From positions 192,001 to 256,000 of the forward strand of contig JAEOSU010000051.1 in NCBI GenBank assembly GCA_016840165.1: a DNA stretch of 64,000 bases, written 5' to 3'. Of this stretch, positions 56,176-61,478 are shown piece after piece. The notes beneath the pieces were generated by a model. The model did not search any database. It worked only from the letters and a program-made list of their open reading frames with translations, and was not told the DNA's origin. This stretch comes from Promethearchaeota archaeon (GTDB lineage Archaea > Asgardarchaeota > Lokiarchaeia > Sigyniarchaeales > SOKP01). Numbering within the stretch: position 1 is the stretch's first letter; every line of letters begins with the position of its first letter. The position numbers and the translations under genes are program-made.

Positions 56176-59100
56176 TTGATAGTCATTACTTTAAGTCATT
56201 TAAAACCATTTTTTAGACCATATATCTTTTTAAAAATACCAGATTCGGTTGAGAAGGATAAGCTTAGTCAAATCCCATTCTTAATGCAAATGTATGATAC
56301 TGGTTTTTTTAAGCATCTCTTTGGAACATTTAAAACAGCAAACTTATTATTTGAAATCCCCAGTGAATATTCAAGAACAAATAAAGAACAATTATTAATT
56401 TCAATAATAATTGATAAAAAAGACAAATTTAATACTGAATTAACGCAGAAGCTTTTAGAAGAGTTTGTTAAAGAATTTAAAAAAATTGAATCAGCTTTTA
56501 AAGCTTTTTATATCGACTCTCAAGTTTATAAAGGAGATATGGATAAGTATAATAAAGTTAAGAATCTATTAGATACTTTCTATATCACCTTTCCTAAGAA
56601 AGATGTAATATTTGAGCAAAAAGAAGCAAATGTGTTAGTTTTTGGTTTATATCTAGCTGGAAAAACTACACTCATAAGATGTAGACGAAAATCAATATCA
56701 AAAACTATATTTCCGACTATAAGTGTAGATATTTCTAGGATTTTAGTTAACAATGTCTCTTTATTAACATATGATACTCCTGGGCAATCTAAATTTAAAG
56801 AGATATGGAAACCATATCTAAAAAATCAAGATGGGTTAATTTTTGTGCTAGATATTACTGACAAAATTAAATTCCCGGATGCTTTCGCGCTATTAAATGA
56901 GATCGCAGGTCATCCAGAATTAAAAGAACTGCCCTTGCTCATTCTTTTCAATAAAATAGATTTAGAAAAACCGGATACCAATGAGATTAATGATCTAATA
57001 AACGCAATGGATTTAGAAAAGTTAGGGAAGCGCCCGATAAAATACTTTTTAACAAGTGGGATTAAAAATATAAACGTGGATGAAGCTTTTAACTGGTTAT
57101 CTTTAAAACTATCAGAAAGACTTGAGACATATGTTCCAAGGAGTGAGGTCGGAATAATTTTTTGTAGATGGGATGAAAATCTTGGCGTAAAGATTGAATT
57201 TGCATATCCTGAAGATGCATTCGAAGACCCTGAGTTAATCTCAATAAAGAGTTTTTCTGTTTCACAATTCTTTATAGCAGGTGCAGAATTAAAACAAAGA
57301 TCTGTTATTCTTCCCTTTCCTCATTTAAATTCATATGCTGCCGTTTATTTTGATTACATTCCAGATGAGAGTATTAGGGGCGGATTATTACCTTTATGCC
57401 TTATCGTATATTATAATGAAAACTTTCCAAAAGAAATTATTAGCCATTTTAATAATTATATTTACGAATTGTTTGATAACATAAAGAATAATTACCATGA
57501 TAAAAGTAACATCATTAATTTAATCAAGTCAGCACAAAACGCAATAATAAATCAAATTGAGCAATTTAGACCCTCAATTGAAACTCTAAAGTTGGCTGAA
57601 TTACGATATGAAGCTTTATTTAGAGCCGCGCGAGATGCAATCTTAATTATAGATCGACGCTCGGGCATTATAATCGATGCTAACAAACAAGCAGAAAAGT
57701 TATTCCAATTGCCTTTTGAAGATTTTATTGCCCTCCATTCAAGTCAGCTACTTACAGATGATATTAGTGTTGATTTTTACGAAAGAATTATTATACAGAT
57801 TGAAAACCCCGTACCTTTAATTACAAACATTATAAGTATATCCGGTAATCTTGTTCCTGTTGAAATTAGCGTAAATGAGATAAAAGTAGGTCAGCAATTA
57901 TTAGTTCAGTGTATAATCAGAGATATTAGTAAGAGAATTGAGACTGAGCGAAAGTTATGGGAATCTGAAAATAAGTATCGACACCTATTCCAAGATTCTC
58001 CTTTTTCAATACTTTTAATCGATTCTAAAGGAGTTGTGGTTGATTGTAATCCCGCATTTGAAATATCCTTAGGATATAAAAAAGGGGAATTAATAGGGAA
58101 AAAATTTGTTGAACTTTCCCTTATTCAAGAGGATTATTTAATCAATCTACTTAATAGATTTAAAAAAGATAAAAAAGATCGAATTTTTTCTCCAATCGAA
58201 ATTCAACTTTATAAAAAAGATGGAAGTCTCATCTGGGCGTTAATGCAGACATCTATCGTCAAAATTGAGAATCAAACATACCATCAAACAATCTGTCAAG
58301 AAATTACAGAAAAGAAGAAAATAGAACAAGATCTCGCCAAAATTTTGAAGTTCTTAACAATAATCACTCGCATTATATCAAAATTTATTGGAGTTAAAAA
58401 TGTCAATAAAGCAATCTATGAATCTCTCAGAGAGATTGGGGACTTCATTAATTCAAATAGAATCTTTCTCTATATCTTCAATGAAAAATATAGTTTTATT
58501 GATAGATCCTTTATATGGTATTCAAAAGTGACATATCCGCAGTTAGAACCTCTTAAAAAAATAGACTCTAACAGTTTTCCTTGGTTAAATGAGAAACTTA
58601 AGACTAATGACTATTTCTATATACAAAATATAGATGATCTTCCAAGTACAGCAAAATCTATAAAGTCATTCCTTCAAGATCAAAATATTATGAATTGTCT
58701 TGTATATTCAATTAAAATTAATGATGTGCTAGAAGGTTTAATTTTCTTTGGGAATATTTTAGACGATGATTATTGGGGATTTAAACGTTTCGATACTCTA
58801 TGTATTTTTCCTGAGATCCTTGTAAATGTCATAGAGCGTGAAGTAATTCAGGAAGGTGTACTTATGAGTGAACAAGAATTTCACCGCCAATTTGATCAGG
58901 AATATTTCTATCGAGAACTCTTTGTAAATGACATTTATAATATAGTTAACAGTCTTTTAACTCTAATTGAGGAGTTTAGTAAGCAACAATCTCAATTTCC
59001 AACAACTTTTTCAAAAAATTGGTTAAATAATGTTATTAGTCAATGTACAAATAGTTTACAGTTAATCTCAATTATCCGTACACTAACTCTTCTTAATGAA

Positions 59101-59556
59101 TCAAAAATAGTAATAAAACGAGTTGATATCAAGGAAATAATTGAGGATGTCTTAGATTATTTTGTAAAAGTATATATAAATAAAAAGATAAACCTAACAA
59201 TCGAAATCCCAGATGAGAATATTTATCTTTTAGCTGATGATTTCTTATTTGACGTTTTTACAAACATTATATTTAGCTCCATAAAATATAATCCAAATCC
59301 ATTAGTTGATTTTAAAATAATAATTTATCGAACACTTCAAGATAACATAAATTATGTTAAAATTGAATTTGTAGATTATAAGAGTGAAATTTCCCATATA
59401 CAAAAGGAAACTCTGTTAATAAAAGACATTGAGAAAGATAGTAACATTAAGGAACTTCTCATAGGTTTCCTTTTGGTTGAACAAATTTTAAATAACTATA
59501 ATGGTAAAATCTGGGTTGAAGGAGGCAATTTTGTGATTATGATTCCTGAAGGGTGA
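56176..59556 (+). CDS. Multidomain signalling protein: uDENN/longin-like, Arf-like GTPase, uDENN/longin-like, PAS, PAS, GAF, degenerate histidine kinase
   Basis: G1 GLYLAGKTT (56644), G2 FPTI, G3 DTPGQ (56773), G4 NKID (56950), G5 TSG; RWDENLGVKIEFAYP; PAS ends IIRDIS and CQEIT; H-box FVNDIYN; GKIWVE. Confidence 0.8.
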   Translation: MIVITLSHLKPFFRPYIFLKIPDSVEKDKLSQIPFLMQMYDTGFFKHLFGTFKTANLLFEIPSEYSRTNKEQLLISIIIDKKDKFNTELTQKLLEEFVKEFKKIESAFKAFYIDSQVYKGDMDKYNKVKNLLDTFYITFPKKDVIFEQKEANVLVFGLYLAGKTTLIRCRRKSISKTIFPTISVDISRILVNNVSLLTYDTPGQSKFKEIWKPYLKNQDGLIFVLDITDKIKFPDAFALLNEIAGHPELKELPLLILFNKIDLEKPDTNEINDLINAMDLEKLGKRPIKYFLTSGIKNINVDEAFNWLSLKLSERLETYVPRSEVGIIFCRWDENLGVKIEFAYPEDAFEDPELISIKSFSVSQFFIAGAELKQRSVILPFPHLNSYAAVYFDYIPDESIRGGLLPLCLIVYYNENFPKEIISHFNNYIYELFDNIKNNYHDKSNIINLIKSAQNAIINQIEQFRPSIETLKLAELRYEALFRAARDAILIIDRRSGIIIDANKQAEKLFQLPFEDFIALHSSQLLTDDISVDFYERIIIQIENPVPLITNIISISGNLVPVEISVNEIKVGQQLLVQCIIRDISKRIETERKLWESENKYRHLFQDSPFSILLIDSKGVVVDCNPAFEISLGYKKGELIGKKFVELSLIQEDYLINLLNRFKKDKKDRIFSPIEIQLYKKDGSLIWALMQTSIVKIENQTYHQTICQEITEKKKIEQDLAKILKFLTIITRIISKFIGVKNVNKAIYESLREIGDFINSNRIFLYIFNEKYSFIDRSFIWYSKVTYPQLEPLKKIDSNSFPWLNEKLKTNDYFYIQNIDDLPSTAKSIKSFLQDQNIMNCLVYSIKINDVLEGLIFFGNILDDDYWGFKRFDTLCIFPEILVNVIEREVIQEGVLMSEQEFHRQFDQEYFYRELFVNDIYNIVNSLLTLIEEFSKQQSQFPTTFSKNWLNNVISQCTNSLQLISIIRTLTLLNESKIVIKRVDIKEIIEDVLDYFVKVYINKKINLTIEIPDENIYLLADDFLFDVFTNIIFSSIKYNPNPLVDFKIIIYRTLQDNINYVKIEFVDYKSEISHIQKETLLIKDIEKDSNIKELLIGFLLVEQILNNYNGKIWVEGGNFVIMIPEG

Positions 59557-59571
59557 TATCCACACCAGACA

Positions 59572-60339
59572 TCAATCTTTCTTAACTTTCTCTAATTGCT
59601 TTTTTAATTTTACAAAAAAATCTGGAGTTGAGATTTGGAATGGTATTGGATATCTTGTTCCTGCTTTATGTGTTTTTTCCATTCCAGATAAAATCTCATT
59701 CACTAGACTAAATGGTATGGATGCAATCAAGTCATTATCGGTTGCATTACCAAATCGACGATCACCTAAACAAGGGAAGGCAATTTGGAGATCTCGAGTG
59801 AGGAGTGTCTTAGTTATCGTATCAGCACATACTCCATCGCAAAAAGTAGACAAATTTACCCTTCCTCCCCTTTTCCAGAGATATCCTTGAATAATTCGCA
59901 TCATCTGAGCAGAATTTCCCCAGATTAATATTAAATCCGGTTCATAGTCTACGCGTCCTAATGCTCCGCTAACTATCGCCTTATATTCATTCGTAGGTAA
60001 TCTTGGCATGCTTGCGGTTGTCAATTTTGCAGCTTGTTTAGTTTCGTTATAACGTCCAATAAAAAATGCCCCTTCTTCAAAAAGGTCATGAGGCTCTTCA
60101 AAACCCAGAGTGATACCTGCTAATGGACATATATTTTCCTCACCAGTACATCCCATTGTCCATCCATAGTAACGAGAATAGCTAAATAGTTGACAAATAA
60201 TAATATCTTCTTCTGGTTTTTTAAGGAACTTAATTTCCTTTAATTTTTCTAGATCTTTATATAATTTCACAGCTACAGGGAATGTAGCTAGCCTTAGATA
60301 CTTAATTAACTGGGTATCTAAACGTTCCCATTTACTCAT
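59572..60339 (-). CDS. DUF169 family protein
   Basis: PVAVK, ICQ, CPLA...LG, PDLI, GVCAD, PCLGDR. Confidence 0.85.
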   Translation of the reverse strand: MSKWERLDTQLIKYLRLATFPVAVKLYKDLEKLKEIKFLKKPEEDIIICQLFSYSRYYGWTMGCTGEENICPLAGITLGFEEPHDLFEEGAFFIGRYNETKQAAKLTTASMPRLPTNEYKAIVSGALGRVDYEPDLILIWGNSAQMMRIIQGYLWKRGGRVNLSTFCDGVCADTITKTLLTRDLQIAFPCLGDRRFGNATDNDLIASIPFSLVNEILSGMEKTHKAGTRYPIPFQISTPDFFVKLKKQLEKVKKD

Positions 60340-60350
60340 TTTAAATTCCT

Positions 60351-61478
60351 TTATATTGTTTTTTGCTCTAATCTCTTTTTTCTTTCACTGATTTTATCAA
60401 ATAAATCATCCATTGTAGGGAACGGGGTAAATTGTTTATCCCTTTTCTTTAAACTAATAGCTTCTACCGGACACTTTACCACACAATTACCACAACCAAT
60501 ACAACGCTTTTTCTTAATTTTTGAAATGTCATCTTGTAGTTTAATTGCTTCCATAGGACAAATATTTACACAAGTGCCGCATCCATTGCAAAGTTCGGGA
60601 TCAATTTCGGCATAATAGTTTGTAATGCTCATACTTCCAGGATTTGGAAATTTAATATAACGAGATAAAGATTCACAGCAACAACTGCAACAACTACATA
60701 TAAATCCTAATTCTTGAGAATTATCAGGTTGAAGCACCAATCCATCTTCTTGATTTTGCCGTAATATCTCGATTGCTTCATCCTTACTTATTTCACGTCC
60801 CCAACCTTGTTCAATATACATTTTTGCAGCATAACCAAATCCCATACATACCTCTCTCCTTGAAGTTACTTTGCAGGGCTCCCCCTCCAAATCTTTTAGT
60901 TGTTTGCATATACAATTTGTCACCATATATGGTCCTTGTGTACTTTCTATTAAAGATTCAAGGTTATCAAAATCAGCAACATTTTCTTCAAATTCGATAC
61001 TTTTCTCTATCGGAATGGTACGCAATTGAGATCCTTTAACTTTAAATGCCTCTGGAAGCCAAGATTCGTCGAAATAATCATGAAAATCCTTAATGAACTC
61101 TTCAGGTAATTGGTCCAATCTATTAACTTGAAATTCAAACATACCCACCATCAATAATGCATTACCATAATACTTTAAGCTATTTTCTTTTTTGAACATC
61201 AGTAAACCCTTCTTGACCATTGAATCCAATTTCTCTTCTAACTCTTCTTTCGTAATATTTTTATCTTTTACTCGTTCATAAATAACATCTATTGGCTCCA
61301 AGTCTCTTTCCCAGCTAAATCTAAGGTAAGTTGCCAACTCTGCCTCTTCTGGAGTAAAAAGATGTTTAAGTAAACGAAGTCCAGAGCCAGATTTACTTGG
61401 TGGAAAGCCAATTGGCATTTTGTCAAGATGTTGCTGCAACTTTTTATATATTTCTATTTCAGATATTTTCTCATTCAT
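60351..61478 (-). CDS. 4Fe-4S dicluster protein with N-terminal HTH-like region and Cys-rich motif
   Basis: LFTPEEA, CICK, CSCCSCCC, CNGCGTCVNICP, CIGCGNCVVKCP. Confidence 0.8.
   Translation of the reverse strand: MNEKISEIEIYKKLQQHLDKMPIGFPPSKSGSGLRLLKHLFTPEEAELATYLRFSWERDLEPIDVIYERVKDKNITKEELEEKLDSMVKKGLLMFKKENSLKYYGNALLMVGMFEFQVNRLDQLPEEFIKDFHDYFDESWLPEAFKVKGSQLRTIPIEKSIEFEENVADFDNLESLIESTQGPYMVTNCICKQLKDLEGEPCKVTSRREVCMGFGYAAKMYIEQGWGREISKDEAIEILRQNQEDGLVLQPDNSQELGFICSCCSCCCESLSRYIKFPNPGSMSITNYYAEIDPELCNGCGTCVNICPMEAIKLQDDISKIKKKRCIGCGNCVVKCPVEAISLKKRDKQFTPFPTMDDLFDKISERKKRLEQKTI

Follow-up and report, generated by a model that had tools for sequence, protein, structure and literature searches.

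The gene, its GTPase and its distribution

The stretch of DNA analysed here (the window: 64,000 nucleotides of contig JAEOSU010000051.1 from a Promethearchaeota archaeon, G+C ~31%) carries at positions 56176 to 59556 a gene for a multi-domain protein built around an Arf-like GTPase. From N- to C-terminus the domains are a longin, the Arf-like GTPase, a second longin, two PAS domains, a probable GAF and a tail resembling the dimerisation/histidine phosphotransfer (DHp) and catalytic/ATP-binding (CA) regions of sensor kinases (Table 1). A first-pass annotation, made from the letters alone, had described the product as an Arf-like GTPase between uDENN/longin-like domains fused to a PAS-PAS-GAF-kinase-like sensor, and eukaryote-type GTPase parts are indeed joined here to prokaryote-type sensor parts. 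The reading frame is intact, a GGAG lies 8 nt upstream of the TTG start, and the annotated start is right, as the N-terminus of the 1126-residue protein fits the homologues' consensus M-K-x-L-I-L-S-H. All motifs quoted in the annotation were located at the expected places: GLYLAGKTT at residue 157, PTI at 180, DTPGQ at 200, IWKPY at 210, GLIFVLD at 220 and NKID at 259 in the GTPase region, with LSHLKPFFRPYIFLKIP at residue 6 and FCRWDENLGVKIEFAYP at residue 329 in the flanks. No transmembrane segment is predicted anywhere in the protein, as the annotation had also concluded; no 19-residue window exceeds a Kyte-Doolittle value of 1.45.

Using residues 1-470 as query, we found 126 homologues; the majority are ~1123 aa long, align colinearly from end to end and share 45-87% identity with this protein. 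These derive from independent NCBI, JGI, ENA and Logan assemblies, on contigs of up to 1.8 Mb. Identical short contigs from an independent soil study run across 57096-57626, and purifying conservation is seen in all domains. Hence the assembly check advised in the first-pass annotation gave a clear answer: chimeric assembly is excluded by more than 120 colinear homologues in independent assemblies. It is vanishingly improbable that a chimeric contig or a decaying gene has fused an Arf-like gene to a sensor kinase, given also the similar-size open frames in 28 species-representative genomes of the host's family; nothing was found in favour of such an artefact beyond the fact that the Logan contigs matching the stretch are short unitigs, none of which spans the entire gene. 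A few apparent contig 'joints' were disregarded for their short sides and low likeness.

The distribution of the gene was determined across species-representative genomes of the phylum by scoring the best 12 candidates per genome, and the counts are therefore lower bounds. An orthologue is present in at least 28 of the 68 genomes of the host's family, which is of Lokiarchaeia type (middle-domain profile, E 1e-54 to 1e-76, frames mostly 830-1148 aa). No orthologue at E <= 1e-20 was detected among the best 12 candidates of each of 233 genomes from 29 other families of the phylum. The search of Asgard genomes for the same architecture that the first-pass annotation proposed thus reveals a real, conserved gene. 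Shorter family forms comprise longin-Arf-longin alone (P0133, 499 aa), longin-Arf alone (P0135, P0136 and P0141, ~314 aa) and forms without PAS (P0114 and P0117, ~640 aa). The NCBI labels of the metagenome-assembled genomes (MAGs) holding 60-87%-identical homologues read Thor-, Heimdall-, Odin-, Hod-, Hermod- and Promethearchaeota, while the genome search finds one family only; the phylum-wide labels are probably unreliable.

The central domain is an Arf-family GTPase by sequence and by fold. Pfam Arf (PF00025) matches residues 147-309 with E 7e-31 (107.4 bits, cut-off 22.3), and the family profile run against the PDB places Arf1 first among 715 matches (E 8.7e-40). Fold searches with a 470-residue model return Arf6 at Z 24.8 (root-mean-square deviation 1.9 over 164 residues) and also list Arl8b (E 1.6e-13), the Asgard GerdArfR1 and LokiRagO; these searches are swamped by GTPases and are uninformative on the flanking domains. 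The G motifs are all present, as G-x4-G-K-T, P-T-I, D-T-P-G-Q with the catalytic Gln, N-K-I-D and T-S-G, the G3 motif reading D-x-P-G-Q in place of the usual D-x-G-G-Q. The N-terminal amphipathic helix of classical Arfs is absent from the AlphaFold2 (AF2) model, where the GTPase core begins at residue 147, straight after the longin helices. Departure from the classical Arf N-terminal helix is already known for some Asgard Arfs (PMC11914678).

Longin-type flanks and the Arg67/Gln204 pattern

An AF2 model of residues 1-470 was built from 71 aligned homologues (predicted local distance difference test, pLDDT, 79.9; predicted template modelling score, pTM, 0.46) and contains three domains, at 3-138, 145-315 (the GTPase) and 325-469. 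As modelled, both flanking domains have longin topology, running strand-strand-helix-strand-strand-strand-helix-helix; roadblock domains, unlike longins, start with a helix. The first-pass placement of the GTPase between two longin/uDENN-class domains is borne out by this topology and by the Pfam match above. The wording 'uDENN/longin-like' holds at the level of the fold, whereas the middle domain is nearer to FLCN, Lst4, NPRL, C9orf72 and SMCR8 than to DENND1A.

The middle longin folds well on its own (pLDDT 86, pTM 0.83). Its best fold match is the longin of a Loki Roadblock-Longin protein (8yqg, Z 15.4), and the best eukaryotic ones include K. lactis Lst4 (Z 13.3), FLCN (Z 12.7), a GATOR1 NPRL subunit (Z 11.6) and C9orf72-SMCR8 (Z 11.3 and 11.0). 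Lower in rank are DENND1A (Z 9.6), Mon1-Ccz1 (Z 9.1), the SNARE, adaptor and TRAPP longins (Z 8-10) and roadblock domains (~Z 8). An Atlas fold search lists Asgard longin-GTPase proteins (template modelling score 0.82), SMCR8 (0.75), folliculin (0.74), an Avl9-like protein (0.71) and NPRL2 (0.67). More precisely, these models suggest that the middle domain belongs with the longins of GTPase-activating protein (GAP) complexes, the FLCN/NPRL2/SMCR8/C9orf72 class.

The catalytic arginines of longin GAPs are FLCN R164, NPRL2 R78 and SMCR8 R147. Three traits have been described for GAP longins, namely an arginine finger, the W33-D34 pair of C9orf72 and, immediately preceding strand 2, a GP motif, the last being present in FLCN, NPRL2, SMCR8 and C9orf72 and absent from FNIP2, NPRL3 and the DENND, adaptor and TRAPP longins (PMC12290439). 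In C9orf72, the W33G/D34K mutation abolishes ARF1 GAP activity (PMC8213707). Across the middle-longin members, W332 (68/68), D333 (67/68) and G337 (68/68) are conserved and E334 is invariant or nearly so. These residues are placed where strand 1 ends and strand 2 begins, and the W-to-G spacing of 5 is that of C9orf72 W33 to G38; a Pro follows G337 in 9/68 members only. Furthermore, R401-G402-G403 is invariant (R401 68/68) and occupies the loop between strands 4 and 5. Pfam gives no match over any member of the middle-longin alignment. The core DENN and dDENN lobes are absent after either longin in both Pfam and AF2 analyses, with the GTPase or PAS following directly and no DENN Pfam match.

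The N-terminal domain is predicted to be a longin from its topology in the 1-470 model alone. Within its 71-member alignment P15 is invariant, residue 14 is Gly in 38 members, and R67, part of the strand 4-5 loop, is kept in 55. Residue 14 is Arg in the present protein, so that the GP motif reads R14-P15, and the loop reads R-T where the family has Arg-Gly. The domain is a member of an extensive Asgard family, which forms 515 clusters at 50% identity. In 120 representatives of these clusters, the GP-motif Gly and the Arg-Gly loop are each at least 90% conserved, a pairing reported for GAP longins and for certain Asgard longins (PMC12290439). Arf, PAS and HATPase_c domains accompany the longin in 40, 38 and 12 of the representatives, respectively. 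Pfam Folliculin matches 3 of the 71 members weakly and below threshold (E 0.007 or weaker), and Atlas feature searches gave only sub-threshold leads, to an Asgard cluster with NPR2 in 19% of its members. Neither Pfam Folliculin (PF11704) nor NPR2 (PF06218) matches this protein, and a genome-wide search with the two models hit other loci only, all below cut-off, without reaching the 56176-59556 frame. Sequence profiles of either longin find chance-level matches only among PDB sequences. The strand 4-5 loops may resemble the sequence around NPRL2 R78 and FLCN R164, which we take as a lead only. A profile-profile comparison aligns the two longins colinearly, with R67 opposite R401, but at a probability of 3.5% (E 0.012); internal duplication is unsupported.

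The two candidate arginines behave differently with respect to the catalytic Gln of the GTPase. Column 204 holds Q in 52, K in 48, Y in 4 and H in 3 of 107 full-length family members. Over 127 rows, R67 is kept in 67 of the 68 with Q or H at 204, compared to 11 of the 59 with K or Y, in which position 67 varies among K, N, G, T, L and P. Arg67 is hence relaxed almost only in lineages without the catalytic Gln204. The Lys-204 and Tyr-204 clades are separate, which places the relaxation in at least two clades, and a tree built without columns 67 and 204 has five state changes for Gln and eight for Arg. R401 is invariant throughout, whatever residue 204 is. The R67/Gln204 pattern is that expected if both residues cooperate in hydrolysis, and as such is suggestive, not proven. 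Lys replaces the catalytic Gln in about half of the 1123-aa clade and Tyr does so in a smaller clade. Members with K204 or Y204 may be GTP-locked pseudo-GTPases.

The sensor region, the tail and candidate mechanisms

Both PAS domains named in the first-pass annotation score above the Pfam and NCBIfam cut-offs, with PAS_9 at 80 bits and TIGR00229 (sensory_box) at 127.6 bits (E 2.9e-37 for the whole protein, in two stretches). The GAF domain is a more qualified case. Conservation is lowest in region 730-890, and Pfam GAF does not match its own sequence here. In contrast, the family profile of the region aligns with the full-length cyanobacteriochrome GAF 6bhn (E 0.0069 over 162 residues), and Pfam GAF is found in the homologues P0152 (E 1.1e-8, at the equivalent place), P0079 and P0099; a GAF domain is thus probable.

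The HisKA/HATPase-like tail of the annotation is supported as a fold, its profile matching HK853 across DHp and CA (E 2.7e-13), whereas the catalytic residues have been lost in this clade. Pfam HATPase_c matches weakly at 1022-1121 (E 0.045, 14.6 bits, cut-off 26.4). The acceptor His is missing, with Asn918 at the H-box (Asn922 by an alternative register), and just 18 of 107 family members have His at 918; an invariant His is found 15 residues upstream of the canonical acceptor position, at 903. S1034 aligns with the Mg-binding N380 of HK853, so that the N-box Asn is lost, the G1 box D-x-G-x-G reads D-Y-K-S-E, and the G2 box retains one Gly. The tail therefore reads as a pseudokinase in this clade. 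With acceptor His, Mg-binding Asn and G1 box all missing, no phosphorelay is expected from this protein, and the two-component output that had been envisaged for it falls away. His918, Asn1034 and D-x-G-x-G are often still present in shorter sister forms (~945-970 aa, without GAF) such as P0084 and P0087. The ancestor was accordingly probably a working kinase, from which this clade gained the GAF and lost catalysis.

We put the chances at about even that this is a cytoplasmic multi-domain signalling protein in which the Arf GTPase is clamped by two longins pairing as a GAP in cis, integrated with PAS-PAS-GAF into a kinase-derived relic. In such a mechanism the two longins would pair and cup the Arf-like domain of the same chain, as SMCR8-C9orf72 does on ARF1, and thereby stimulate hydrolysis. 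The N-terminal longin would supply Arg67 as the finger, beside the GP-motif remnant; R67 is the likelier finger because of its covariation with Gln204. The switch regions would be held by the middle longin through W332-D333, in the way that C9orf72 engages ARF1. PAS-PAS-GAF would either modulate the hydrolysis or be integrated with it, the helical linkers feeding both their ligand state and the state of the bound nucleotide into a dimeric DHp/CA module. As this module is without acceptor His, Mg-binding Asn and G1 box, its output would run through protein contacts instead of phosphotransfer.

Several observations weigh against this mechanism. The pTM of 0.46 for the 1-470 model leaves the interdomain packing unfixed. 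The Folliculin matches of the N-terminal longin are below threshold and the Folliculin and NPR2 models miss this frame, while the protein itself has R-P at the GP motif and R-T at the Arg-Gly loop. The invariant Arg is R401 and not R67, so that the catalytic role could be reversed, or R401 could be structural. A count of independent pairs for Arg67/Gln204 gave five usable pairs, too few to reach significance, of which ~2 change the same way and none in the opposite way, with a median p of ~0.5. A permanently tethered, ungated GAP would make the GTPase short-lived. Moreover, longin platforms also serve as guanine nucleotide exchange factors (GEFs), as in Mon1-Ccz1, DENN and TRAPP, and both activities are reported for MglB-type roadblock platforms. 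Complex prediction of the two longins and the GTPase with GTP, the GTPase being the scored partner, gave ipSAE values of 0.29 and 0.15 against a mark of 0.32, and was used neither way.

The alternative that survives best, possible if on the unlikely side, is that longin-GTPase-longin acts mainly as an input, reporting GTP level or a separate GEF, GAP or partner and regulating the C-terminal transmitter together with PAS/GAF, the GTPase being without an effector of its own. In this clade, the dead transmitter would pair with or titrate an active paralogous kinase or response regulator. The module is N-terminal to the transmitter, the usual place of histidine kinase inputs, and that it has this position in relatives with an active kinase speaks for at least a partial input role. 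The kinase is catalytically complete in the sister forms P0084 and P0087, kinase-bearing and kinase-less paralogues lie in tandem in one MAG, and the same genome has both a kinase plus REC-longin operon and a longin-PAS-GAF-PAS paralogue. An input role would also accord with the proposal of Liu et al. that Asgard growth control is still two-component-centred with eukaryote-like regulators (10.1101/2020.10.19.343400). On the other hand, neither a response regulator nor a kinase gene stands beside this gene or five homologues, and conservation is stronger in the longin and GTPase parts than in sensor and tail, which suggests that the main function lies in the former. Such an input is compatible with GAP action in cis, and differs from the clamped-GTPase mechanism mainly in where the output is located.

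A built-in GEF of DENN, Mon1-Ccz1 or TRAPP type, with PAS/GAF ligands switching exchange on and the Arf-like domain becoming GTP-loaded, seems quite improbable. Exchange is the commoner longin-platform activity (PMC12290439). DENND1A and Mon1-Ccz1 do appear among the fold matches, and the R14-P15 remnant is degenerate as a GP motif. Against this, GAP-class longins rank above the GEF-type ones in three fold searches, neither longin is followed by a DENN core, and the C9orf72-type W-D-x3-G is conserved together with the arginine loops. The relaxation of Arg67 almost only where the catalytic Gln is lost fits hydrolysis better than exchange. Judging from fold ranking, the W-D-x3-G motif, the GP and Arg-Gly motifs of the family and the Arg67 relaxation with Gln204 loss, a built-in GAP is more likely than a GEF, and the built-in GEF-like domains of the first-pass annotation are not favoured.

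It is a broader and doubtful proposition that longin-Arf-longin represents a one-chain archaeal forerunner of the longin GAPs of eukaryotes (C9orf72-SMCR8 with Arf, GATOR1 and FLCN-FNIP with Rag), wired to ligand sensors and to a kinase or its relic. If true, the logic of nutrient or ligand sensor to longin GAP to small GTPase to kinase would predate eukaryotes and would have originated within a two-component framework. Lineages that have lost Arg67 and Gln204 together would then be those in which the switch has turned into a permanently GTP-bound scaffold.

Relation to known systems and genomic setting

Among the closest known systems is the C9orf72-SMCR8(-WDR41) ARF GAP (7mge, 6lt0, 7o2w; PMC8213707), in which two longins of the same class act on a GTPase of the Arf family. 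The W-D-x3-G of C9orf72 recurs in the middle domain, both longins here have a loop Arg, and the N-terminal one belongs to a family with a GP-type motif, of which this protein keeps R14-P15. The C9orf72-SMCR8 structure was itself obtained from an artificial ARF1-SMCR8 fusion (PMC8213707), whereas the present protein has the three parts in one natural chain, with neither DENN lobes nor WDR41. It also differs in that the invariant Arg sits in the C9orf72-like and not the SMCR8-like domain, identity is ~6-11%, and the protein is known from sequence and models. GATOR1 (NPRL2-NPRL3) and FLCN-FNIP/Lst7-Lst4, GAPs for Rag/Gtr GTPases, supply the best eukaryotic fold matches and would share the logic of GP motif and arginine finger, as well as the tie to a sensing pathway ending in a kinase. 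In contrast, the client here is Arf-like by sequence and not Rag-like, and a roadblock C-terminal domain, Ragulator and DEPDC5 have no counterpart. Similarity to the uDENN longins of the DENN Rab GEFs (DENND1A/B) extends to the longin fold and the strand-turn-strand start, but the match is weaker than to GAP-class longins, the core DENN/dDENN lobes are lacking, and DENND proteins are without the GP motif (PMC12290439). HK853 and other HisKA sensor kinases resemble the protein in the DHp and CA profile match and in having PAS and GAF upstream; they differ in their acceptor His, Mg-binding Asn and G1 box, all gone here, and in the response regulator, of which none is nearby.

Fusions of this kind are not a wholly new class, having been outlined in the literature of 2020-2024, and the first-pass notion of an undescribed system is too strong in view of Liu et al. 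and Tran et al. (PMC10933270), who published the general class. Liu et al. report many NPRL2-like longin fusions with two-component domains (Fig. 5c) and Rag-family GTPases fused to longins (10.1101/2020.10.19.343400); the former belong to the class of the present protein, with an N-terminal NPRL2-like longin ahead of PAS and histidine-kinase-type domains in Loki- and Thor-type genomes. Their text, the figure excluded, does not describe the arrangement of an Arf GTPase with a second longin, GAP-type motifs or a pseudokinase state. The longin/roadblock-GTPase fusions of Tran et al. (LokiRagO 8yl2; LokiRagM 9m28; Loki Roadblock-Longin 8yqg) also come from Lokiarchaeia and have a GTPase fused to, or between, longin and roadblock, but they measure ~300-470 aa, are without sensor or kinase, and carry a roadblock as C-terminal flank versus the two longins here. 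Longin extensions on Asgard Arfs were noted by Zhu et al. (PMC11914678). The full architecture, the C9orf72-type motif, the finger/Gln covariation and the pseudokinase state appear in none of the published texts compared, the Liu et al. figure excluded.

A 2025 survey of longin GAPs describes Asgard longins with GP motif and arginine finger and asks whether Arf-related or Rag-type GTPases are their clients (PMC12290439). The present family is a natural Rosetta-stone fusion in this respect, joining a GP/Arg-type longin, an Arf-family GTPase and a C9orf72-like W-D longin, with a candidate finger that decays along with the catalytic Gln. It offers a direct test of archaeal longins as GTPase-activating proteins and turns the question of the survey into a one-protein experiment. 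As one soluble chain, residues 1-470 open GAP activity, finger identity and PAS/GAF gating to ordinary biochemistry. The decay of a two-component transmitter to a pseudokinase, with the eukaryote-like module conserved, furthermore bears on the rewiring of signalling toward eukaryotes.

Table 1 Features of the longin-Arf-longin sensor gene (window positions) and of related genes in the same genome (G000 and L positions)
Feature	Residues	Position	Strand	Basis
Whole gene	1126 aa	56176..59556	+	single open frame, TTG start, stop codon included
N-terminal longin	1-146	56176..56613	+	AF2 topology (local pLDDT ~85-90), motifs, weak Folliculin matches in relatives
Arg67, candidate arginine finger of N-terminal longin	67	56374..56376	+	covariation with residue 204
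Arf-family GTPase domain	147-316	56614..57123	+	G1-G5 intact, Gln204 present; Pfam, PDB profile, fold match
Gln204 of D-T-P-G-Q	204	56785..56787	+	column counts in family
Middle longin	318-470	57127..57585	+	AF2 model, fold searches, motif columns
PAS domain 1	477-590	57604..57945	+	Pfam, NCBIfam
PAS domain 2	596-720	57961..58335	+	TIGR00229 at 596-720; PAS_9 (Pfam span 600-712)
Probable GAF	730-890	58363..58845	+	family profile against 6bhn; Pfam GAF in homologues
DHp-like helical region	895-960	58858..59055	+	tail profile against HK853; H-box columns
Degenerate CA (HATPase_c-like)	1000-1126	59173..59553	+	Pfam, HK853 alignment
Longin-PAS-GAF-PAS paralogue	561 aa	G000:C48:19844-21529 (L007:259-1944)	-	N-terminal longin E 4e-47
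HisKA+HATPase_c kinase, then REC-longin response regulator	327 aa, 296 aa	G000:C47:16511-18435 (L002:11-994, L002:1045-1935)	+	
Two tandem longin + Ras/Rab-like GTPase proteins	347 and 350 aa	G000:C92 (L003:1477-2520, L005:1480-2532)	+	
Longin (weak Folliculin match) + Gtr1/RagA GTPase	470 aa	G000:C92 (L004:535-1947)	-	
Longin + Arf-like GTPase	347 aa	G000:C58 (L010:907-1950)	-	

The host genome carries longin-GTPase fusions in a combinatorial set (Table 1). The longin-PAS-GAF-PAS paralogue has neither GTPase nor kinase. The kinase and REC-longin pair reads as a two-component system with longin output: the receiver of the regulator matches Pfam with E 7.5e-25, and its C-terminal longin is related to the middle domain (E 2.8e-10). 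The genome-search match at this locus has one in-frame TAG near its end.

No conserved partner gene, response regulator or kinase gene adjoins this gene or the loci of five homologues, whose surroundings differ from one another. Kinase-complete forms often adjoin a longin-Arf paralogue. Tandem paralogues are found at L011:1861-7916 (GCA_014728645.1, WJLH01000182.1), where P0118 (957 aa, with Arf and PAS and no HATPase match) accompanies P0084 (971 aa, with a catalytically complete kinase); the two could form a heteromeric pair.

The genes flanking the window gene lie on the opposite strand and are unrelated metabolic ones, for a CoA-transferase subunit, a nitroreductase, a DUF169 protein and an Fe-S protein. 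Downstream, the DUF169 gene stands tail-to-tail with the present gene and is followed by that of a 375-aa Fer4 protein (window 59572-61478, minus strand). At the locus of P0087, a 49%-identical kinase-complete relative (L012:5667-7698), there is a DUF169 gene and then a gene for a 383-aa protein without a Pfam match on record. The order of DUF169 and a similar-size gene looks conserved between the two loci.

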